Shown: positions 3,441 through 64,000 of the stretch, piece by piece
How the letters are laid out: every line of letters begins with the position of its first letter
Numbering within the stretch: the first letter of the stretch is position 1
Assembly (NCBI GenBank): GCA_025999215.1
Contig: AP024679.1
Location: 633,924 to 697,923, forward strand
Source of the DNA: Candidatus Dojkabacteria bacterium
GTDB lineage: Bacteria; Patescibacteriota; Dojkabacteria; J137
Length of the DNA: 64,000 bases
Direction: 5' to 3'
Made by a program: the position numbers and the translations under genes
Notes under the pieces: model-generated
What the model saw: the letters and a program-made list of their open reading frames with translations, nothing else
Told to the model about the DNA's origin: nothing
Databases searched by the model: none

Positions 3441-6400
3441 TTAAATTATTTTTTTAAGCCATTGACCTGTATAGCTATTTTCACAATTCATCACATCTTC
3501 AACACTACCTTCAACTACAATTTCACCTCCTCTATCACCACCTTCCGGACCTAAATCAATTATCCAATCAGCAGTTTTAATTACATCTAAGTTATGTTCA
3601 ATCACCAAAACTGTGTTACCTTTTGCAACCAAACCATGAAGCACCAAAAGCAATTTCCTTACATCTTCAAAATGCAACCCAGTTGTAGGTTCATCTAAAA
3701 TATAGAATGTTTTACCTGTTGAACGCTTTGATAGTTCTGTTGCTAGTTTTACTCTTTGCGATTCACCACCTGATAGAGTTGTTGCACCTTGACCTAATCT
3801 GATATAACCCAATCCTACATCATTCAATGTTTTTAGCTTAGTTTTAATTTTAGGAATATTTTCAAAAAAGCTTAGTGCTTCATTTACCGTCATATCCAAA
3901 ACTTCAGAAATGTTTTTTCCTTTATAATCAATTTGTAAAGTCTCTCTGTTGTATCGCTTTCCGTTACACTCATCGCATTTAACGTAAACATCTGGCAAAA
4001 ATTGCATTGAAATTTGAATAACGCCTGCTCCTTGACATGCTTCACATCTACCTCCTTTTACATTGAAGCTAAACCTTCCCGGTTTGTAACCTCTTGCTCT
4101 TGCTTCTTTAGTTTGTGCAAAAATATTCCTAATTTCTGTGAAAATTCCCGTGTAAGTTGCTGGATTTGATCTTGGTGTTCTTCCGATTGGCGATTGATCA
4201 ATATCTATCACTTTATCAATGTGCTCAATTCCTCGTAATGTTCCAAATTTACCGAGTTGATTTGAATTACCATTTAACTCTTTTGCTAGTGCTTTGTAAA
4301 GAATTTCATTTACTAATGTAGATTTTCCAGATCCTGATACTCCTGTAACTGCTACAAATTTACCTAGAGGAAATTCACAATCAAATCCTTTGAGATTATT
4401 TTCTTGAACATTTGTAACAATTATTTTGTTGTTGTTTACTTTTCTAAAAGATTTTAAGCCTAATTGCTGTTTAACTTCTTTTTCTATTTCATTTTTTGAA
4501 ATTTGAAGTTTTTTTGATAAATATTTACCTGTTATTGAATTATCAACTTTTTTAATGCCTTCTACATCTCCTGCGTATACTACTTCACCTCCTTTTTCGC
4601 CAGCACCAGGACCTATATCAATAATATAATCAGCTCTATTTATAGTATCTTCATCATGTTCAACAACTATAACAGTGTTACCGATATCTCTTAAATTTTC
4701 TAAAGTTCTAATTAATCTTTCATTATCTCTTTGATGCAATCCAATTGAAGGCTCATCAAGCACATACAAAACTCCCGTTAATCCTGTACCTATTTGAGAA
4801 GCTAAACGAATTCTTTGAGATTCACCACCTGATAAAGTTTTGGCAGATCTACTAAGCGTTAAATATTCAAGACCAACAGCAAGCAAAAAGTCTAGGCGCG
4901 ATTCAATTTCTTTAAAAACTTGCTTTCCTATCACGAGTTCTTGATTTGATAATGAATCGTCGTCATTGATTTGTATGCCAAAAAGTTCTTGCATTGTTTG
5001 AGAAGTTTGTAACTTCGCCTTTCCTTGTTTTGTTTGTGATACCCAAAGCTTAGCTTGTTTAATAGACATATTAACAACATCCACAATGTTTAAACCATTT
5101 ATTGTAACACTTAGAGATTCTTTCTTGAGTCTATAGCCATTACATTCTGGGCAAACCTTTTCAAACATATATTGCTCAATTTCGCTCCTTACATACTCAG
5201 ATTCACTCTCTTGATATCGTCTCATTAAATTTGGAATCACACCTTCATATTTCAAACTAACTTTCTTCTTGTTTCTGTACGAATCTGTATACTCAATTTC
5301 AAAAGTTTTATCGGGTAGTCCAAACATCAAAATATCAAAATGTTTTTTACTTAACTCACCAATAGGCTTTTTAAGCGAAAAACCTTCTTTTTTAGCAACA
5401 TTATGAATTAATTTCATCATGTAAGAATTCTCATTATCTATTATTCTGTTCCATGGATAAATTCCACCTTCCATCACTGTCAATCGTGGATTGTAAACTA
5501 GAGACAGATCGATTTCTTTTATAAATCCCAAACCGCCGCACTTACTGCACGCACCATGAGGGGAATTGAATGAAAAAGAATGAGGTTCAATTTCTGGAAA
5601 AGATTCACCAGTAGTAGGATCAACTAATTTTTCAGAATAAAAAAGATCCCCATTTTCATTCGTTTTTAAAATAGATTTATAATTTTTAAAATCATTCAAA
5701 TGAACATATATTTCACCATTGCCATAACTTAAAGCTAGTTCAACAGAATCAGTTAACCTTTTTATAAAATTATCATCATCTTTTGAATCATTATTTAAAA
5801 CAAGCCTATCAATAATCAAATCAATATTGTGTTTTACATACCTTTCTAAAGTGATATCTTCTTCAAGCGAGTAAATTTGCCCATCCACTCTCACTCTAGC
5901 AAAACCTTGAGCTAAAAATCGTGTGAATAGTTCTTCATATGTGCCCTTTCGACTTTTAATAACCGGAGCAATAATCATGATTTTAAGCTTATCAAATTTT
6001 AGTTTTTGGGGTAATTCACAAATGCTATCTACAATTTGCTGTACTGTTTGTTTTTGCAATCGCTCACCAGTTTTGTGGCTTCTTGGGTGCCCCACTCTAG
6101 CAAATAAAAGTCTTAAATAGTCATAAATTTCTGTTACTGTTCCAACGGTGGATCGTGGATTGTGTCCTGTCGACTTTTGATCAATTGAAATTGCCGGTGA
6201 AAGTCCTTCAATCAAATCTACATCAGGTTTATCCATTAAACCTAAAAATTGCCTTGCATAAGACGATAATGACTCTACATACCGTCGTTGTCCTTCTGCA
6301 TAAATCGTATCAAACGCAAGTGATGACTTACCTGATCCTGATAAACCTGTGATAACTGTTAATTTATTTTTTGAAATATCTACATCTATGTTTTTTAGAT

Positions 6401-7328: not shown

Positions 7329-7359
7329 CCCTTCCAGTTCCATCTAGGAAGGGTTTTTT
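7329..7359 (+). terminator. Intrinsic terminator-like hairpin, CCCTTCC-loop-GGAAGGG plus T6
   Basis: Stem 7329-7335 / 7347-7353, then T-tract 7354-7359. Sequence resembles the 6640-6665 terminator, suggesting a paralogous unit. Confidence 0.45.
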
Positions 7360-7421
7360 CTTACTAAAATAACTGATTAGTTTAAAGCTAAAATTTCAAG
7401 CAAAATTTTAGCCAATAAATG

Positions 7422-9928: not shown

Positions 9929-10004
9929 ATTGAATTTTTAATCTTTGTAATTTTAACTAACATTTTAATATATGTAAACTCTATAAAAAATGTAAAATAC
10001 TATA

Positions 10005-10598: not shown

Positions 10599-10759
10599 GG
10601 ATTATTTTTGTTTTTATTTTAAAAAATATCTTGGAATTGAAATCTTAGTAAATTTATAAAATGTTACGAAAACATTTTTGAAGTTTTAAAGCTAGCGAAT
10701 ACCTGAAACAAATCTAACTTTTAATTTTATTTGCATATTTCGTCCTGGGTCAACGCGAT

Positions 10760-10840
10760 TTATAAGGGCATGGACTCATCAGTCACAGATCCAATATGAG
10801 ATATTTTAAGAGTGAATACAGTCATGGAGCCATAAGCCAA
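10760..10840 (-). pseudogene. Degenerate fragment resembling the tyrS N-terminal region (gene remnant)
   Basis: Reverse complement reads SMTVFTLKISHIGSVTDESMPL*, compare tyrS FEISGKPHIGSAVMSMAV. It shares the nucleotide string gatccaatatgag with tyrS at 9797-9810. Confidence 0.3.
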
Positions 10841-11170
10841 GCTAGGCATCAAAAAGACTGTGTTCACTTTTTTAAAAAATTTTTAATCTAGAGAGATATT
10901 AAAAGAAATGAACACGAGCGGGGATATTTCGTTTTCCTTCCACCTGCACCAATCTTTGTTAAAATCGTATAAGGTACATCGGCTTTACGGGCAGGTTCGT
11001 CTTGAGATAAACCAAGACCAGTTCTTAACTTTTTGATTCTTTCTTAATTTATTGTCTTGTCTATCTTCCATATTTTGATATCATAAAATTATTGATATCT
11101 TCTTCTTTCATTATTATGCTAACAAATATAATAAAGACAAGCAAATTTTTACAACTCAAAGATGAGAAAA

Positions 11171-11244
11171 AGCCCGCTTTTGGCCTGCATGCTCCGCACG
11201 TAAAAGTAAAGAATATTTGAAGGGAAAATCGGCTGGCGAGCCCT
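11171..11244 (+). repeat. Copy A of an approximately 73-bp direct repeat (about 96% identical to copy B at 15238-15310)
   Basis: agcccgctttTggcctgcatgctccgcacgtaaaagtaaagaatatttgaagggaaaatcggctggcgagcc; the two copies differ by one inserted T and one G/C change. Confidence 0.8.
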
Positions 11245-11313
11245 TTTAAATTCCACCCAGAATGCCAATTGGCAGAAAGGACTGGACGCTTTTCGAACTT
11301 TCCCCTGGTTTGA

Positions 11314-11684
11314 TCATATCAAAAATACTGATGACTTCATCAAGGATTTAAATTCCCTACTTAGCTTTGCCTTTTCCACCGGATATTTCTTATCGTTTAT
11401 ATCAATCTTCTCATCAATTATCTCCAATAGATCTACGCCTGCTTCTTTGCACAATAGAAGAAGATAAATTCCTACATCTGCAAGCTCTTGTCTGAATTCT
11501 GCAACCTTATCTGGATTCTATAGAACTTTTTTAGATTCGTCTAAAACCTTCCAAATAAAGTATTCAATAACCTCAGAAGCTTCAAACGATAAAGCAATTG
11601 CTAGATTTTAGGATTGTGAAACTGCTCCCGATCTCTATCTGTTCTGAATTTTTCTATCTTCTCTACAATTTGTTGAATGTTCAT
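11314..11684 (-). pseudogene. MazG-like nucleotide pyrophosphohydrolase pseudogene (frameshift plus internal stop)
   Basis: Reverse-strand translation MNIQQIVEKIEKFRTDRDREQFHNPK / [frameshift] NLAIALSFEASEVIEYFIWKVLDESKKVL*NPDKVAEFRQELADVGIYLLLLCKEAGVDLLEIIDEKIDINDKKYPVEKAKL... matches the MazG/YpjD NTP-PPase family. Reading is interrupted by a frameshift and a TAG. Confidence 0.6.
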
Positions 11685-11743
11685 TTTAGTAATTTAAAAG
11701 TTAAGTTTTATTAACTCGGAATTTTAAGTATTAATATAATTTT

Positions 11744-12589
11744 CTAGCTTTTGTCTACTAAAGATCTCAAAAAGACTTTAGAAGTCTTGCTATGTATTAG
11801 TCTTGTTGGTCCTGTGGCAATCAATCTAATCTGATCATTACCATTATAACTTCCTTGTAAACTCTTTGTTCTTGCCTCGGTATAATCATACTCTGGTGAA
11901 TTATCTGAACGCATACTAATATATGCATCCTTCTGAAAAGTAACTATAATTCCTCTTTTATCTTTCATAAAGTGATGAATAACTCTTTCCATCCTTCTTT
12001 GATCAAAGTACTCAACCTGCGATAAGGCTTTACTACCAAATAAACGTCTTAAGCCATTTACTCCTGCCCATGGTTCAACACTTGGTGTACTAGGCATTGA
12101 GAAGTATGAAGCAAATCCAAGTAAGAAAGGAGACTCATACCTACCAGACCATAAGATCTCTTTTCTTTCATGACTTTTATCTAAATTGCTTGCTCCTGAT
12201 GAATCTGGTAATATAGCTACTCCAGTTTCTCTTAGAACCTTCCATACTCTGTGTTCTCTGCCATCTCCCTCAAATGAGAATATTGCCTTTTCTTTTACAG
12301 AGTGGGGGGCAGGATTACCAAAAACTAGCAATAAAGGAGTTCTTGAATCTTGTAGATTTGGAACTAACGATTGTGAGTAGTAGCTAAGAGTATCTCCTTC
12401 TTTAAAAAAAACATATTGATTAGAATCATCAGACTGATAGAATTCATTCCATCTTGTTTCGAACTGAGCTCTTTCTTCTCCTGCTGAATATAAAGCATTT
12501 AAGTTAATGGAAATTTTTTCTATACCTTTTTCTACAAGTTCAATTGAGAAGTTGCCGTCATTAAATTGTTCAACTAATTTATCATCCAT
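11744..12589 (-). CDS. Hypothetical protein; weak resemblance to uracil-DNA glycosylase superfamily motif A (LLLVFGNPAPHS)
   Basis: 281-aa intact ORF. The GxNPxP-like motif is the only recognisable feature. Confidence 0.35.
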   Translation of the reverse strand: MDDKLVEQFNDGNFSIELVEKGIEKISINLNALYSAGEERAQFETRWNEFYQSDDSNQYVFFKEGDTLSYYSQSLVPNLQDSRTPLLLVFGNPAPHSVKEKAIFSFEGDGREHRVWKVLRETGVAILPDSSGASNLDKSHERKEILWSGRYESPFLLGFASYFSMPSTPSVEPWAGVNGLRRLFGSKALSQVEYFDQRRMERVIHHFMKDKRGIIVTFQKDAYISMRSDNSPEYDYTEARTKSLQGSYNGNDQIRLIATGPTRLIHSKTSKVFLRSLVDKS

Positions 12590-12768
12590 AAATTCTTATT
12601 TATATGATTTTAAAAGCTTATCTATTATGTTCATGATCTCTATTTCGTCGTTAATATCTAGCTTATATTGTATTTCTTTTCTGGAAATCTCATTTAAACT
12701 TTCTTTTATTTCATCTGTATTTAATTGGTCGATTCTAATAAGGTGTAACGACTTGGTGTTATTTACAA

Positions 12769-13929
12769 TTACATTTTTAAGTCAATTCTGATACTGATTC
12801 CGAAAATATAGGTTTGTACAATCTTAGGATTGAGCATTTTGACGCACATATCAATTACATGGCGAGGGGTGAAGTATTGGCCCTTTTCGCCTTTTGATGA
12901 CTTATTGACCAAGTATTCAAAGGCTTCGTCAATAATTTGCAGATTGGAATTGAAAAGTTTTATATCCTGCAAGCTGGAAACGCTGACGGAAAGATGAGAG
13001 GGTGAAAGTTGAATAAGGCTTCCTTCATCAAAAACGCCCGGCCACTTGGCCTTGGCTTCATCAAAAAGTTTTTGTATTTTCTTTTTAAGTTCTGACTCTG
13101 ATTGTCCGGAGTTTCTAAATTCTAAAACCCTGAAATTGGAATCATCTATTTTTGCCAAAACTTCTTTTACCTTGTCATAATCTCCGCGATCTTCTTGGCT
13201 TAATTTGTCTTCAAGATAAATTTCCAGACGCATTTTGTCTTTTTTGCTCTGCAATTCATCGTAAAGTTTGGTGAAAATTAGTTTAAAAACTTCTTCAAAA
13301 ACATCCACGCCAGCGTTTGCTAAAACTTCATCTTCCATTTCCTGAATAATGGTTTTGAACGATTTTCCCTCGTTTGGGATTTTGTCTTTGATGATTAAGT
13401 CTTTGAGGGTGAATCTTTCTTTTAAAATATCGGAAAGCGTCTGATCGGCTTTGGGAATGTCGGTAATGTCTTCAAAATAGTTCGGATCTTTGCGGTGGTA
13501 ATGACTGATTTGTCCGCCGTTGGTCCAAACTGCAATTGGCGCGCCGGTGGCGTTGGTGTAGGAGCGGAGCTGATTCTTTCCGTCTTGGAGTTTTGACTTT
13601 TTTACTTCAACGATAATGTATTCAACTGTCGGGCGGTCTTTGTCGAAAATAACAATATCGGCGGATTTTACCTGTCTTCCAAAATGGATAGCGTGTTCAA
13701 ATTTGATTCTTTGTTTTGGGTAGCCATATTCTTCAATGAGTTTCATGGCGTAAAGCTGGCGGACGACTTCTTCGGATTTCAAAACAATTTCTTTATCACG
13801 GATAGCGCAAACAACATACGGCTTGCCATTTTTGAAAGTTATTTTACTTTCTAATTCATCAACCAGCTTTTGGTCAAAAATAGAAAAGCTGTAATTTGAA
13901 TCTTTGATAATGTTTAAAATGTTTTTCAT
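12769..13929 (-). pseudogene. Truncated N6-adenine DNA methyltransferase (HsdM/type IIG-like) with HSDR_N-like N-terminal domain
   Basis: N-terminal HSDR_N-like segment (ADIVIFDKDRPTVEYIIVEVKK). MTase motif X (GQYFTPRHVIDMCVKMLNP) is followed immediately by a stop. The downstream DPACGSGGFL and NPPF/Y motifs are absent. Locally higher GC than the surrounding genome. Confidence 0.65.
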
Positions 13930-14015
13930 AGTTTTAACTTTATTAAATCATCAACACTAGCTTCAAGCTCTTCTGTAGTCTTGGCTAATTTTTCGTAATA
14001 TGGTTTTTGCATATT

Positions 14016-14924
14016 TTATTTATTATAAGTATAACTTTGTTTAATAAGCTCGAAAACCTGGTCAATTTCTTCTTCTTTTTCGAGTTTCACTTCATAATCA
14101 CCATTGCCCCAATGTCCAACCTTTTTCGGTTTTGCAAGATCGCGAGCAATGCCGTGAGGATCATTGAGCTCGCCACTTGGTACATTGAGAAAAATTTTGA
14201 GGCCATATTTTTTTACAACAACATCAACAAAATTCGTCGATAGCTTGTAGGCGATATATTTTGCTTTCGGCTCAACGATAATGGATTCATCAAGCGCAAC
14301 AATTTTTTCATTGATTGCCTCAAAAATTTTCTTGGCTTTTGGGCTGATTCCGCCTAGATGGTCTTCGAGGGTGTATATGACTTTTTCCTTGATTACCTTT
14401 TCTTTCTTTTTTTTGTCAAAAACTTTCGCGGTTGAGATACGCACTTTTTGTTGTGTTTCCGGTTCAACTAAAAGAATGTTGTTTTGGTAAATGCGGAATT
14501 TCAAAAGCTCAATTTTGATAGGGAGCAATTCAGCAGTATCTAAATCAAATTTATTGTAGCTTTCGGCAACGCAGATAACTCGGGGGGAGGCCCAATCAAT
14601 ATCAACATTCACTTTTGCTTTTTGCACTAAAACTTCAAAATCGGCTTTGTGGTCCAAAAGCCATCGAAGATATGAGAGTCCTTGATTGATCACATTATCG
14701 TTTTGGTTTCTTTTGTACTCGATGATTACTGGTGAGCCGTTCTTGTCAATGCCGAGAGAATCAATCCGTCCCCCGAAACTCGTTGAGTATTCGCTAGTGA
14801 GAAATGTGATGTTCAAAATCTCATTTAGATTTTTTTCAAAAATTTTCTGTATATCTCTTTCTAACCCAACTTTGATCGGAGGAATTTTTCTTACTTTGCC
14901 GTTTTGTATTAAAAATAAGGCCAT
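14016..14924 (-). CDS. NucS/PD-(D/E)xK-like nuclease domain protein with DUF5655-like C-terminus
   Basis: Motif GGRIDSLGIDKNGSPVIIEYKR matches the PD-(D/E)xK core of NucS/DUF91-type nucleases. Higher-GC gene inside the island. Confidence 0.5.
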   Translation of the reverse strand: MALFLIQNGKVRKIPPIKVGLERDIQKIFEKNLNEILNITFLTSEYSTSFGGRIDSLGIDKNGSPVIIEYKRNQNDNVINQGLSYLRWLLDHKADFEVLVQKAKVNVDIDWASPRVICVAESYNKFDLDTAELLPIKIELLKFRIYQNNILLVEPETQQKVRISTAKVFDKKKKEKVIKEKVIYTLEDHLGGISPKAKKIFEAINEKIVALDESIIVEPKAKYIAYKLSTNFVDVVVKKYGLKIFLNVPSGELNDPHGIARDLAKPKKVGHWGNGDYEVKLEKEEEIDQVFELIKQSYTYNK

Positions 14925-14928
14925 AGTT

Positions 14929-15183
14929 TTATTTCACTAAATCATCTAAAAAAACGCCAAGACCCTTAGCAACTTTCGTTATTGTCTGCAAAGAGGGATT
15001 TTGAATAACATCACTCTCAATTTTAACTAAAGTCGTATAGGGAATATCTGCCTTTTTTGCCAAAGCGTCCTGCGTAATTTCTTTCTTTTTACGCCATGAT
15101 TTGATTTTTTGGTCTATTGTTTTGACTCGATTCATTTTCTTTCTTCCATATAATACTAGTATAAAGTTATTGGCATTTAGCAA
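14929..15183 (-). CDS. XRE-family helix-turn-helix transcriptional regulator, candidate controller (C) protein of the adjacent nuclease/methylase genes
   Basis: 84 aa with HTH_XRE signature (ITQDALAKKADIPYTTLVKIESDVIQNPSLQTITKVAKGLG). Confidence 0.7.
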   Translation of the reverse strand: MLNANNFILVLYGRKKMNRVKTIDQKIKSWRKKKEITQDALAKKADIPYTTLVKIESDVIQNPSLQTITKVAKGLGVFLDDLVK

Positions 15184-15237
15184 TCATCAATATTATGATA
15201 ACAAGTATGCTGGGATCAATCAAATTAAAAATTCGGG

Positions 15238-15310
15238 AAGCCCGCTTTGGGCCTGCATGCTCCGCACGTAAAAGTAAAGAATATTTGAAGGGAAAATCGG
15301 CTGGCGAGCC
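15238..15310 (+). repeat. Copy B of the approximately 73-bp direct repeat, immediately 3' of tRNA-Ser(GGA)
   Basis: Near-identical to 11171-11244. Contains a GCCC-GCTTT-GGGC hairpin that would serve as the tRNA terminator on the minus strand. Confidence 0.8.
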
Positions 15311-15329
15311 AACAAAGACATTTCCTAAC

Positions 15330-15419
15330 TGGCGGAGAGGACAGGATTCGAACCTGCGGTTCCGTTTCCGGAACACTGTCTCTCCAAGACAGCGCTTTCG
15401 ACCACTCAGCCACCTCTCC
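15330..15419 (-). tRNA. tRNA-Ser (anticodon GGA), CCA encoded
   Basis: The reverse complement folds as a class II tRNA with a long variable arm. Anticodon loop TTGGAGA, T-loop GGTTCGAATCC, acceptor GGAGAGG/CCTCTCC, 3' GCCA. Confidence 0.9.
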
Positions 15420-61485: not shown

Positions 61486-61575
61486 GGAGAGGTGGCCGAG
61501 CGGTCTAAGGCACATGTCTCGAAAACATGAAGGGCAAAAAAGCCCTCGTGGGTTCGAATCCCACCCTCTCCGCCA
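61486..61575 (+). tRNA. tRNA-Ser (anticodon CGA), CCA encoded
   Basis: GGAGAGGTGGCCGAGCGGTCTAAGGC... with anticodon loop CTCGAAA, a long variable arm, T-loop GGTTCGAATCC and 3' GCCA. Confidence 0.9.
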
Positions 61576-61825
61576 ATTGGTATTCTGGGGGGAATTTAAA
61601 AGGGCACGCCAGCTGAGTTTCCCTTCAAATATTTTTACTTTGCTTGAAAAGTAAGAGAGCAAAAGCGGGTTTTTTCTCATCTTTGGCTTAAAAATTTGCT
61701 TGCCTTGAGTATTACTTAGTATAATGTTGACACATGTAAATATAAAAAATTGTAGTTTGCTATAACTAAAAATACTCACCCACAGGGGTGTTGAACGTTT
61801 CACTTGAGGAGTTAATAAAATAATT

Positions 61826-64000
61826 ATGGCTTTAAAAAAATCACAACTTTATAATAAAATTTGGCAAGCATGCGATGCGTTACGAGGTGGCATGGATGCC
61901 TCTGAATATAAAAATTATGTACTCACACTTTTGTTTGTTCGCTACCTTTCCGATAAACACGCCAACAACCCAAATAGCATTGTTGTAGTTCCTGAAGGCG
62001 GAAGTTTTGCGAATCTTTCTAAATTAAAAGGTAAGTCAAACATCGGGGAAGAGATTAATAAGGTTCTTCACAAACTTGCAGAAGCTAACAATTTAAAAGG
62101 AATAATCGACATTGTTGACTTTAATGATGAGAGTAAGCTTGGTAAAGGGAAAGAGCAAGTTGATAGATTATCAGAATTAATTGCTATTTTTGAATCAACT
62201 GAGCTTGATTTTTCTAAAAATTCTGCCGAAGGTGATGATCTTTTGGGAGATGCTTACGAGTATTTAATGAAAAACTTTGCCGTAGAATCCGGAAAAAGCA
62301 AGGGGCAGTTTTACACTCCAGCGGAAGTTTCTCGCTTAATAGCAAAGTTGGTAGAGGCTAGCAAAGCCACAAGTAACTCTCAGAATGCCTATGATCCTAC
62401 TTGCGGTAGTGGGTCGCTACTTTTGAAAGTTGCAACTGAAGCAAAGCCTGTCAATCTTACTCTTTTTGGTCAAGAAAAAGACAATAATACGCATGCATTA
62501 GCAATTTTAAACATGTGGCTTCATAATGAGCCAACAGCAGACATTAGAAAAGGAAACACTTTGTCAGAACCTGCTTTTACTGAAAATGGCGCATTAAAAA
62601 AATTTGATTTTGTGGTTGCTAATCCTCCGTTTTCCCAAAAAAACTGGATGCAAGGGCTTGATCCTGAACATGATTTATACGCCAGATTTGATGGCTTTGG
62701 TATTCCTCCAGCTAAAAATGGCGACTACGCTTTTTTGCTTCACATTGTTAAATCTCTAAAAAGCACTGGCAAGGGAGCAGTGGTTTTGCCTCATGGTGTG
62801 CTTTTCCGCGGAAACGCCGAGGCCCAGATCCGCCAAAGCTTGGTTAAGCGTGGTTATATTAAAGGCATCATCGGCCTGCCCGCAAATCTCTTTTTTGGTA
62901 CAGGCATACCAGCCTGCATCGTTGTTTTGGATAAGGAGAAAGCGGCCGAACGCCAAGGCATTTTTATGATCGATGCCTCAAAAGGGTATCGTAAAGACGG
63001 CAATAAAAACCGCTTGCGCGATCAGGATATTGAAAAGATTTTGGATATTTGGCAATCACAGGAAGAAATTCCAGGCTTTAGCCATTTTGCTACTTTGAGA
63101 GAGATAGAAAAAAACGAATACAACTTAAATCTTCCCCGCTACATTGAAAACATAGATCAGGAAGATGATCAATCAATAGAAGGGCATCTCTATGGTGGAA
63201 TTCCAACAAAAGACATTGAAAGCCTTAAAAACTTTTGGCAGGTTTGCCCTAAACTAAAAGATGAGATTTTTACGCCATTAAGAGATGGTTTTGTTTCTCT
63301 CAAAGTTGACACTGACAACCTTGGAGAAACTATCCAAGAAAGAGCTGAATTTTTAAGTTTTAAAAACAAAACTCAGGAGACTTTAAGGCAGTGGCAAAAA
63401 GTACAACAGGAATATTTAACTAGTTTAGACTCTGATGTTAGGCCAAAAGAAGTCTTTTTCAAACTAGGGCAAGCACTAAAAACTGCCTTTGCAGAAAACC
63501 CCTTGCTTGATAAATACGATGTTTTTCAAGTTTTGGCTGATTACTGGCAGGAGATAATGCAAGATGATGTGTATATAATTGTGAGCGATGGCTGGCTGGC
63601 AGGCAAAGAGGTAATAAGGCTTACCAAAGAAAATAAAAACAAGAAAAAGGCCGAGATTAAAGGCTTAGCCGGGCTTGAGGGTAGATTAATACCGGTAGAT
63701 CTTCTTATCAAAACATACTTTGCCGACACTTGGCAAGATTTGGAAAAGGCAAAACAAGACCAAGAAGAAGCAAAATCTCGTATGGATGAGATAAAAGAAG
63801 AGCATGGCGGTGAGGATGGTTTGCTCTCGGATCTTGCAAGCGAATCTGGCAATATTCCCAAAAAAGATCTTCTTGCCAGACTCAAAGAACTGCAAAGATC
63901 GCAAAATTTGGGTGAGTTAGATGAAGAAGAAAAGGAAGAGCTAGATGTTTTGCAAGAATATGCGCAAAATCTAGAAAAAGAGTCCCAAGCTAAAAAAGAG
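61826..64000 (+). CDS. hsdM: Type I restriction-modification system methyltransferase subunit HsdM (3' end outside the window)
   Basis: RBS GAGGAG. N-terminal MALKKSQLYNKIWQACDALRG, motif X GQFYTPAEVSRLIAKLV, motif I DPTCGSGSLL, motif IV NPPFS. No stop before the window edge. Segment 62750-63060 is about 50% GC. Confidence 0.85.
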   Translation, partial: MALKKSQLYNKIWQACDALRGGMDASEYKNYVLTLLFVRYLSDKHANNPNSIVVVPEGGSFANLSKLKGKSNIGEEINKVLHKLAEANNLKGIIDIVDFNDESKLGKGKEQVDRLSELIAIFESTELDFSKNSAEGDDLLGDAYEYLMKNFAVESGKSKGQFYTPAEVSRLIAKLVEASKATSNSQNAYDPTCGSGSLLLKVATEAKPVNLTLFGQEKDNNTHALAILNMWLHNEPTADIRKGNTLSEPAFTENGALKKFDFVVANPPFSQKNWMQGLDPEHDLYARFDGFGIPPAKNGDYAFLLHIVKSLKSTGKGAVVLPHGVLFRGNAEAQIRQSLVKRGYIKGIIGLPANLFFGTGIPACIVVLDKEKAAERQGIFMIDASKGYRKDGNKNRLRDQDIEKILDIWQSQEEIPGFSHFATLREIEKNEYNLNLPRYIENIDQEDDQSIEGHLYGGIPTKDIESLKNFWQVCPKLKDEIFTPLRDGFVSLKVDTDNLGETIQERAEFLSFKNKTQETLRQWQKVQQEYLTSLDSDVRPKEVFFKLGQALKTAFAENPLLDKYDVFQVLADYWQEIMQDDVYIIVSDGWLAGKEVIRLTKENKNKKKAEIKGLAGLEGRLIPVDLLIKTYFADTWQDLEKAKQDQEEAKSRMDEIKEEHGGEDGLLSDLASESGNIPKKDLLARLKELQRSQNLGELDEEEKEELDVLQEYAQNLEKESQAKKE

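Follow-up and report, generated by a model that had tools for sequence, protein, structure and literature searches.

The ssrA genomic islands (ssrA-GIs) of Dehalococcoides encode DsiB, a serine recombinase of about 540 amino acids (aa), on the reverse strand directly beside attL. Several of these islands can lie in tandem at the tRNA-like gene, and some lack an integration module and were proposed to be mobilised in cis or in trans or to be fixed (McMurdie et al. 2011, PMC3146451). They are the closest published analogue that we found for the locus studied here, which lies in a 64,000-nucleotide (nt) stretch of a Candidatus Dojkabacteria bacterium genome (GenBank assembly GCA_025999215.1, contig AP024679.1, positions 633,924 to 697,923; hereafter the window). 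Two direct repeats of 73 nt lie there about 4 kb apart, one of them beside the gene for tRNA-Ser(GGA), and an earlier reading made from the letters alone (the sequence-only reading) had compared them to the attL/attR scars of an integrative element. We find that the locus does hold relics of tRNA-targeted integrative elements. The 73-mers, however, are probably not the attL/attR core of one element but the same internal piece of the tRNA-proximal ends of two related, recombinase-less islands that lie in tandem 3' of tRNA-Ser(GGA).

As in the ssrA-GIs, relatives of these islands carry a reverse-strand gene for a large serine recombinase (LSR) beside attL, and the window itself holds tandem islands without a recombinase. 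The ssrA-GIs target the T-loop position of the transfer-messenger RNA (tmRNA) gene and have 20-bp direct repeats, whereas the elements described here use the extreme 3' end of tRNA-Ser, tRNA-Gln or tRNA-Trp genes and have about 4 to 6 shared bases. They are also much smaller, carry restriction-modification (R-M) and defence cargo and occur in many phyla; the stop region of their recombinase gene lies across the att site, and they contain an internal inverted att copy. They lack the six-gene integration module of the ssrA-GIs and, unlike these and the staphylococcal cassette chromosome (SCC), have no second small recombinase (DsiA/CcrA-like) and no ssrA or rlmH target. Islander-type tyrosine-integrase islands (PMC4383910) share the tRNA target, the restored gene, the tandem arrays and the decay, but here the enzyme is a serine recombinase, the displaced tRNA 3' half is absent, the element brings its own mimic, and the crossover lies at the discriminator and CCA. 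Mobile R-M units with C proteins (Furuta, Abe and Kobayashi 2010, PMC2853133) resemble the present elements in their cargo, an XRE/C-protein gene with methyltransferase and endonuclease genes behind it, and in their flanking repeats; the vehicle here differs in being a defined serine-recombinase element with a fixed tRNA target. Phage LSRs (phiC31, Bxb1, TP901-1 and A118) and the SCCmec recombinases CcrAB and CcrC have the same Resolvase, Recombinase and zinc-ribbon domains and a short shared core. The recombinase described here shares no more than about 28% identity with any INPHARED phage integrase, and no phage or plasmid record contained the element. Our literature search on serine recombinases targeting tRNA-Ser returned nothing specific, and we know of no characterised serine integrase with a tRNA 3' end as its target.

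The repeat pair

A repeat search placed copy A of the 73-mer at 11170 to 11242 and copy B at 15238 to 15310 (both on the minus strand), with a start-to-start distance of 4,068 nt. The repeats and their spacing were thus as the sequence-only reading had described them, but the identity, 72/73 (98.6%), is above the roughly 96% claimed. The pair is the sole strong direct repeat between positions 10000 and 16500, and two sub-patterns of the 73-mer had no match in 100 dinucleotide-preserving shuffles of the window. Only 19 nt separate copy B from the 3' end of an intact tRNA-Ser(GGA) gene (15330 to 15419, minus strand; ARAGORN; Rfam RF00005, 58.3 bits), the attB-side target of the islands.

The block between the copies lies entirely on the minus strand and consists of an XRE gene, a DUF5655/PDC-S18 gene, a truncated type I methyltransferase gene, a 281-aa open reading frame (ORF) and a mazG pseudogene. 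Its description as foreign and decayed was borne out by the pseudogene, by a G+C content of 33 to 37% against about 30% for the window, and by defence-type cargo with close homologues in other phyla (the DUF5655/PDC-S18 homologues in Bacteroidales, Gammaproteobacteria and Patescibacteria are 80 to 91% identical). The reported lack of an integrase was also correct. Pfam detected no tyrosine integrase gene in the block, and a tblastn search of the window with the L004 recombinase returned no recombinase gene, only three C-terminal remnants of 9 to 28 aa. Because the recombinase gene is absent from the window, we regard its islands as derivatives and not as autonomous members of their family.

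We also considered whether the 73-mer is a common dispersed repeat, which would have separated it from this locus. The window holds three copies of the 73-mer module, each tied to a tRNA-Ser 3' end or to a pseudo-tRNA end, and not the many copies at unrelated loci that characterise dispersal of the repetitive extragenic palindromic (REP) or miniature inverted-repeat transposable element (MITE) kind.

Two islands of different subfamilies

Comparison with relatives (loci and contigs numbered L002 to L027) assigned the two copies to different islands. Positions 10941 to 11280 are about 90% identical over 330 to 340 nt to the recombinase-less elements L002 and L006. On account of this identity, copy A (92% identical to its L002/L006 equivalents), its spacer, its promoter and its XRE pseudogene form the left end of an L002-type island, island A. 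The spacer (11243 to 11269, minus strand; ATTGGCATTCTGGGTGGAATTTAAAAG) is the antisense of a recombinase tail of the ..LLNSTQNANW type and represents the P' arm of island A; its S27 segment is 94.5% identical to that of L004, and the L004 recombinase matches 11216 to 11290 by tblastn. The promoter and XRE gene (10941 to 11169, minus strand) are about 90% identical to those of L002/L006, and translation showed the gene to be frameshifted and truncated at its 3' end. The homology ends at about 10941 to 10952, and no far junction of island A was found. Next to it, between a 197-aa ORF and the island A remnant, 10599 to 10940 has locally higher G+C, no ORF and no homology to the relatives; this may be further decayed island DNA.

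Copy B adjoins a different spacer (15311 to 15329, minus strand; GTTAGGAAATGTCTTTGTT), which we read as a decayed antisense remnant of a recombinase C-terminus. It starts GTTAGGAAATG and encodes the ..FPNW tail of the L016 subfamily; beyond CCGCCA, its first 11 nt agree with the attL sequence of the Nitrospira-type L016 (CCGCCAGTTAGGAAATG) and not with the spacer of copy A. In the tRNA sense, copy B then comprises 27 nt antisense to the recombinase residues FEGKIGWRA (tblastn match at 15284 to 15310), an AT-rich stretch, a hairpin CGTGC-GGA-GCATG, a second hairpin (GGCCCAAAGCGGGC) and TT. At the other end of the block, alignments revealed a pseudo-tRNA 3' end (11270 to 11299, minus strand; AGTTCGAAAAGCGTCCAGTCCTTTCTGCCA), the element-borne P arm of island B. 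It sits exactly between the mazG pseudogene and spacer A and corresponds in position and style to the pseudo-tRNA ends with which L002, L011 and L017 terminate at their far junctions. Compared with the resident tRNA it has an insertion and mismatches, and it is not an identical displaced tRNA fragment. The junctions in the window read tRNA..CTCCGCCA/GTTAGG and ..TTTCTGCCA/ATTGG.

The right boundary of the block is therefore this pseudo-tRNA end and not copy A, as had been supposed; copy A belongs to the older, truncated island. Since the pseudo-tRNA end lies between mazG and spacer A, where the far junction of a later island is expected, we read the order as tRNA, island B (15329 to 11270) and truncated island A (11269 to about 10941).

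Beyond the 73-mer, homology between the two copies continues at lower identity into the promoter-like region and XRE gene that follow each of them in the tRNA sense. In the alignment, identity steps at the 73-mer edges from about 55% in the flanks to 100% and back to about 55%. The shared order of parts and this weak homology would be expected if the left end of one island (tRNA fragment, spacer, 73-mer, promoter and XRE gene) had been duplicated in situ and had then diverged outside the 73-mer. We consider such a segmental duplication highly improbable. The two spacers cannot be aligned and each matches an element subfamily of its own, identity falls from 99% in the 73-mer to only about 55% in the flanks, and the pseudo-tRNA end beside copy A does not reproduce the 3' end of the resident tRNA.

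Anatomy of whole elements and the crossover site

The enzyme missing from the window is present in relatives. L003 and L004 encode a 540-aa protein whose gene converges on the tRNA gene and reads into it. The final codons of this gene (..FEGKIGWRALLNSPQNTNW) correspond, in antisense, to the spacer plus the initial 27 nt of the 73-mer. Given its Resolvase, Recombinase and Zn_ribbon_recom domains, this protein is an LSR and not the tyrosine integrase that tRNA-linked att scars usually imply. LSRs with these three domains were present in L003, L004, L010, L011, L014, L016 to L018, L023, L025 and L027. NCBIfam gave sub-threshold matches only (XisF and CcrB), and the called genes around the recombinase in L016 to L018, L023, L025 and L027 included no second recombinase. 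No candidate for a recombination directionality factor that would serve excision was recognised, although the small ORFs of the relatives were left uncharacterised.

We read the element plan from L011 (6.7 kb, with both junctions), L010, L004, L002 and L017. From the tRNA end, the host tRNA gene is followed by the spacer and 27 nt, the antisense recombinase gene and a leader containing a hairpin and a 20-mer (GGCCAAAAGCGGGCTTTTTC). An inverted second copy (spacer, pseudo-tRNA and GC-rich hairpin), a divergent promoter, the XRE gene and the cargo come next, and at the far end a GC-rich terminator-like hairpin and a pseudo-tRNA end precede the host flank. The spacer and 27 nt are the antisense of the last approximately 20 recombinase codons, and the elements are about 5 to 7 kb in size.

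Both junctions could be seen in L002, L011 and L017: attL reads tRNA..CCGC/CAATTGG, and attR reads pseudo-tRNA..CCGC/host (L011 attL, CTCCGCCAATTGG, and attR, CACCGCAAGCC; L002 attR, CACCGCCAAAAGCG). The two sites share only a short core of about 4 to 6 bases, with no long target duplication. Comparison of attL, the internal copy and attR in the relatives located the exchange within CCGC (the last acceptor bases, the discriminator and the first C of CCA), 20 to 28 nt from the 73-mer. Because the exchange lies there, the tRNA body is left untouched and the element supplies the sequence downstream of the crossover. The pseudo-tRNA end is element DNA, with the same sequence in different hosts.

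These junctions bear directly on the idea that the 73-mers are the duplicated attL/attR core of a single element beside tRNA-Ser, which site-specific recombination between the two copies would excise. In its favour, a foreign block is enclosed by direct repeats, one of which adjoins a tRNA gene, and an att duplication gives near-perfect identity, but the idea is extremely unlikely to be correct. The whole relatives L002, L011 and L017 have the 73-mer module once, in the tRNA-proximal position, and their far junction is a pseudo-tRNA end without a 73-mer. The crossover falls at the terminal CCGC of the tRNA, the block in the window is separated from copy A by a pseudo-tRNA junction, and copy A is contiguous on both sides with L002-like island sequence (340 nt).

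Tandem recombinase-less islands, our preferred reading of the window, have counterparts among the relatives. Recombinase-less elements with intact ends were found in Melioribacteraceae (L002 and L009; 5.8 kb) and Planctomycetia (L006 and L013), with the layout tRNA, spacer and 73-mer, promoter, XRE gene and cargo, and pseudo-tRNA end. We infer that the full form gave rise to this layout by inversion between the spacer repeats, after which the DNA between the two 20-mers was deleted. All relatives with a recombinase have its gene flanked by inverted spacer repeats and the cargo by inverted pseudo-tRNA-hairpin repeats. The arms are identical or nearly so within an element (in L004, 3701 to 3761 and 5214 to 5274, 61 nt and 100% identical; in L017, 7841 to 7890 and 9391 to 9440, and 3059 to 3170 and 7733 to 7844, the latter pair 112 nt and 98% identical) and different between subfamilies. 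The inverted second att copy may be an invertible switch. Short conserved fragments of the recombinase gene lie beside every pseudo-tRNA hairpin and, in L017, before successive cargo modules. L017 also has direct repeats of about 55 nt (4191 to 4245, 5615 to 5669 and 7338 to 7371) that contain a 5' coding fragment of the recombinase and stand ahead of successive cargo genes; they may be what remains after several rounds of tandem entry and the later loss of the recombinase.

Content and identity of the 73-mers

The 27-nt part of the 73-mer is a relic of coding sequence that forms part of the arm beside the crossover in intact elements. The middle hairpin keeps its position but has at least six different stems across subfamilies (GCGTGC/GCACGC, CGTGC/GCATG, GTCCCGC/GCGGGAC, GTCCCGCC/GGCGGGAC, TTTTGC/GCAAAA and a long one in L017); L025 has no such hairpin. 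After it come a small GGCC..GGGC hairpin and a T run, and the ends of the 73-mer (GGCTCGCCAGCCGATTTT.. and ..AGGCCAAAAGCGGGCTT) are kept even in L016-type leaders. Judged by their sequence, the paired hairpins resemble a tandem terminator or insulator that would limit read-through from the tRNA into the gene behind it. The terminator hairpin that had been assigned to copy B does match the consensus, but the scan found 3 terminator-like sites where 3.0 were expected, a chance frequency. Folding of the 73-mer was no better than that of shuffles on either strand (z of +0.09 to +1.5), and an Rfam scan of the whole window returned three tRNAs only at the gathering score. We dropped a stand-alone structured RNA as a candidate on the strength of the folding result. 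A tRNA-like 73-mer, with 7-bp "acceptor" pairing of its ends, was rejected as well; it has no D or T arms, and ARAGORN reported nothing.

Could purifying selection on a functional module (an RNA, a terminator or insulator, or a protein-binding site) have kept the copies identical? The hairpin held in place with different stems, the terminator-like matches in both copies in the tRNA sense and the family-wide conservation of the 27-nt part would all fit. Copy A, however, differs from the L002-type 73-mer by 8% (six differences), and the divergence is far greater in the L016, L017 and tRNA-Ser(CGA) copies. Since family members diverge by 8% or more over these 73 nt, the function does not require 99% identity and selection does not explain the 72/73 agreement. 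Together with folding at the level of shuffles, the lack of an Rfam match and the chance frequency of terminator-like sites, this makes selection a very unlikely cause.

Copy B has all six of the variants that distinguish copy A from the L002 type. Since the flanks of B are of the other subfamily and yet its 73-mer carries all the A-specific variants, intragenomic gene conversion bounded by the edges of homology would be the most economical explanation of the 72/73 identity. The 73-mer is the only long uninterrupted homology block between the left ends of the two islands. We rejected entry of island B by homologous recombination inside the 73-mer, which would break the spacer-73-mer-promoter-XRE linkage common to copy A and L002/L006 (about 90% identity over 340 nt).

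The element family

A search with a 25-nt degenerate pattern of the 73-mer extended the set of copies to 6 GTDB species genomes (Saccharibacteria, Melioribacteraceae, Roizmanbacteria, a Patescibacteria metagenome-assembled genome of the same KatS3 series, Desulfonauticus and Planctomycetia) and 7 metagenome contigs. There was none among 2.9 million viral contigs, and the source element was not found in plasmids. At most of the loci the module begins immediately behind a tRNA-Ser gene (GGA, CGA or TGA); at the remainder, either it is preceded by the pseudo-tRNA end of the element itself or the contig is too short to tell. The module lies 3' of tRNA-Ser in at least six phyla, beside an intact LSR gene or R-M/defence cargo. 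Near-identical element DNA occurs in Patescibacteria, Planctomycetota, Ignavibacteriota and Desulfobacterota, and more diverged members of the recombinase family in Nitrospirota and Saganbacteria. Shared element parts are 94 to 99% identical between hosts of different phyla.

A homology search for the recombinase returned more than 7,900 homologues. The recombinase genes of L004, L010 and L011 are 99.9% identical. In L011, a contig of 6,712 nt with a coverage of about 3,346x according to its name, the recombinase ORF ends at 401 aa, which could reflect a premature stop or a sequencing error. The convergent layout recurs in Nitrospira (L016), Saganbacteria (L017), Brocadia (L018) and L025, with recombinases 65 to 83% identical to that of L004. 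Sister recombinases (67 to 72% identical) have the same arrangement at tRNA-Gln(TTG) (L023/L024, 4438 to 4511) and tRNA-Trp(CCA) (L027, 4432 to 4507), and in these lineages the last six bases of the pseudo-tRNA arm are altered to fit the new target (CAGCCA and CTGCCA, respectively). The cargo of the relatives consists mostly of R-M systems with a C-protein-like XRE gene, plus an OLD/GajA-like nuclease; one element carries a major facilitator superfamily (MFS) transporter and an inositol phosphatase.

To compare the occupied site with that of a close relative, we looked up the SIMPL and tryptophanyl-tRNA synthetase (TrpRS) neighbours by exact protein, and neither returned a record. The only relative obtained was the Dojkabacteria locus L014 (SIMPL 54% identical), whose tRNA-Ser(GGA) is nearly identical to that of the window. 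Its site is not empty but occupied by a different serine-recombinase element, with a recombinase 45% identical to that of L004 that converges on the same tRNA-Ser(GGA). The recombinase gene (L014, 10857 to 12383) is uncalled in the public record and is part of a larger element, whose other genes include those for a LexA-like repressor, Replic_Relax and a sortase.

Cargo of island B and a third island

Directly after copy B in the tRNA sense, island B has a promoter-like region and an XRE/C-protein gene (14929 to 15237, minus strand; Pfam HTH_3, 2.1e-12; PADLOC Control_protein, 1.8e-9). The gene itself is intact (14929 to 15183), with promoter-like hexamers at 15223 to 15192. It is followed by the DUF5655/NucS-like gene (14016 to 14924, minus strand), which PADLOC lists as candidate defence gene PDC-S18. 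Homologues of this gene were inspected at four further loci: in L019 it stands after an XRE gene and before an EcoRV-type R-M system, and in L020 to L022 it adjoins an intact MazG gene, the pairing also seen in island B. None of these four loci is at tRNA-Ser, and for this reason they yielded no intact B-type element. The methyltransferase gene (12769 to 13929, minus strand) retains the N-terminal part only, with the Pfam domain HSDR_N_2 and the start of N6_Mtase; its best stretch in PADLOC MTase_I covers profile positions 8 to 255 of 672. The 281-aa orphan ORF (11744 to 12589, minus strand) had no Pfam, PADLOC or NCBIfam match, and the most distal cargo, the mazG pseudogene (11301 to 11684, minus strand), has multiple in-frame stops in translation.

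The third copy of the module lies directly 3' of tRNA-Ser(CGA) (61486 to 61575, plus strand; ARAGORN and Rfam). It is diverged and consists of a spacer, a 27-nt recombinase tail, a different hairpin, an e20-like sequence and a promoter (61576 to 61730, plus strand, by alignment), the spacer and 73-mer equivalent occupying 61576 to 61680. Its S27 segment is 96% identical, and tblastn gave a match at 61546 to 61629 (E of 5.5e-11). Behind it, from 61827 to the window end at 64000 (plus strand; G+C 38 to 40%), is decayed cargo that contains no ORF longer than 114 aa after a start that appears HsdM-like from its N-terminal sequence. This has the appearance of a type I R-M island in an advanced state of decay, which extends past the window edge. 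All three islands of the window carry pseudogenes.

Discussion

We propose the following history for the locus. An L002-like island A would first have settled at tRNA-Ser(GGA). Island B, of a different subfamily, would then have entered the same tRNA end and displaced A outward, leaving the order tRNA, B, pseudo-tRNA of B, and spacer, 73-mer and XRE gene of A. Most of A would later have been deleted while the cargo of B decayed, and gene conversion would have homogenised the 73-mers to 72/73. The two copies are now probably inert, except that they could serve as a substrate for a RecA-type event that deletes the 4-kb block.

Several points weigh against this reading. The far end of island B is without the GC-rich hairpin of the relatives, and its core is CTGCCA, not CCGCCA. 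For B to enter an occupied site, recombination would have had to take place at an attL-like target, a kind of site that is not used by canonical serine integrases. No intact B-type element was recovered, so that gene conversion is read from the identity step only. The P arm and the reverse complement of the P' arm matched at best at 9 to 11 of 26 ungapped positions in L004, L016 and L018, no better than shuffles in this crude test. L005, the sole contig with the sense order tRNA, spacer, leader and recombinase, covers just 63 nt of the gene before it stops, and it could have arisen from an assembly that ran through the inverted repeat. Finally, the recombinase search covers the 64-kb window of an 862-kb contig.

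The islands of the window are themselves relics, and the interest lies in the family that they reveal, which is apparently widespread and undescribed. It is possible, if somewhat doubtful when taken as a whole, that the family consists of cross-phylum LSR cassettes of about 5 to 7 kb that insert at the discriminator/CCA end of tRNA genes, mostly tRNA-Ser, with tRNA-Gln and tRNA-Trp used by sister lineages whose pseudo-tRNA arm covaries. The recombinase frame would run across att, and its C-terminus would be rewritten on integration. With an inverted second att copy and the recombinase gene between identical inverted repeats of 50 to 80 bp, the element could perhaps switch the gene to a position behind the tRNA promoter. 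Such cassettes would ferry R-M and defence genes between phyla, at 94 to 99% nucleotide identity and without transfer genes of their own, and recombinase-less copies would apparently be mobilised in trans.

For the Dojkabacteria genome, the tandem islands explain a 4.4-kb block of dead and foreign genes and point to both tRNA-Ser genes of the window as insertion hot spots for defence cargo in a reduced Patescibacteria genome (862-kb contig). More generally, the serine integrase of the family has as its target the tRNA 3' terminus, which is universally conserved, and the cargo includes R-M systems, OLD/Gabija-like nucleases and candidate defence genes. If the elements are indeed active, they would be a compact vehicle for the spread of defence genes between phyla, and their serine integrases, with a natural target in every bacterium, would be of interest for genome engineering.

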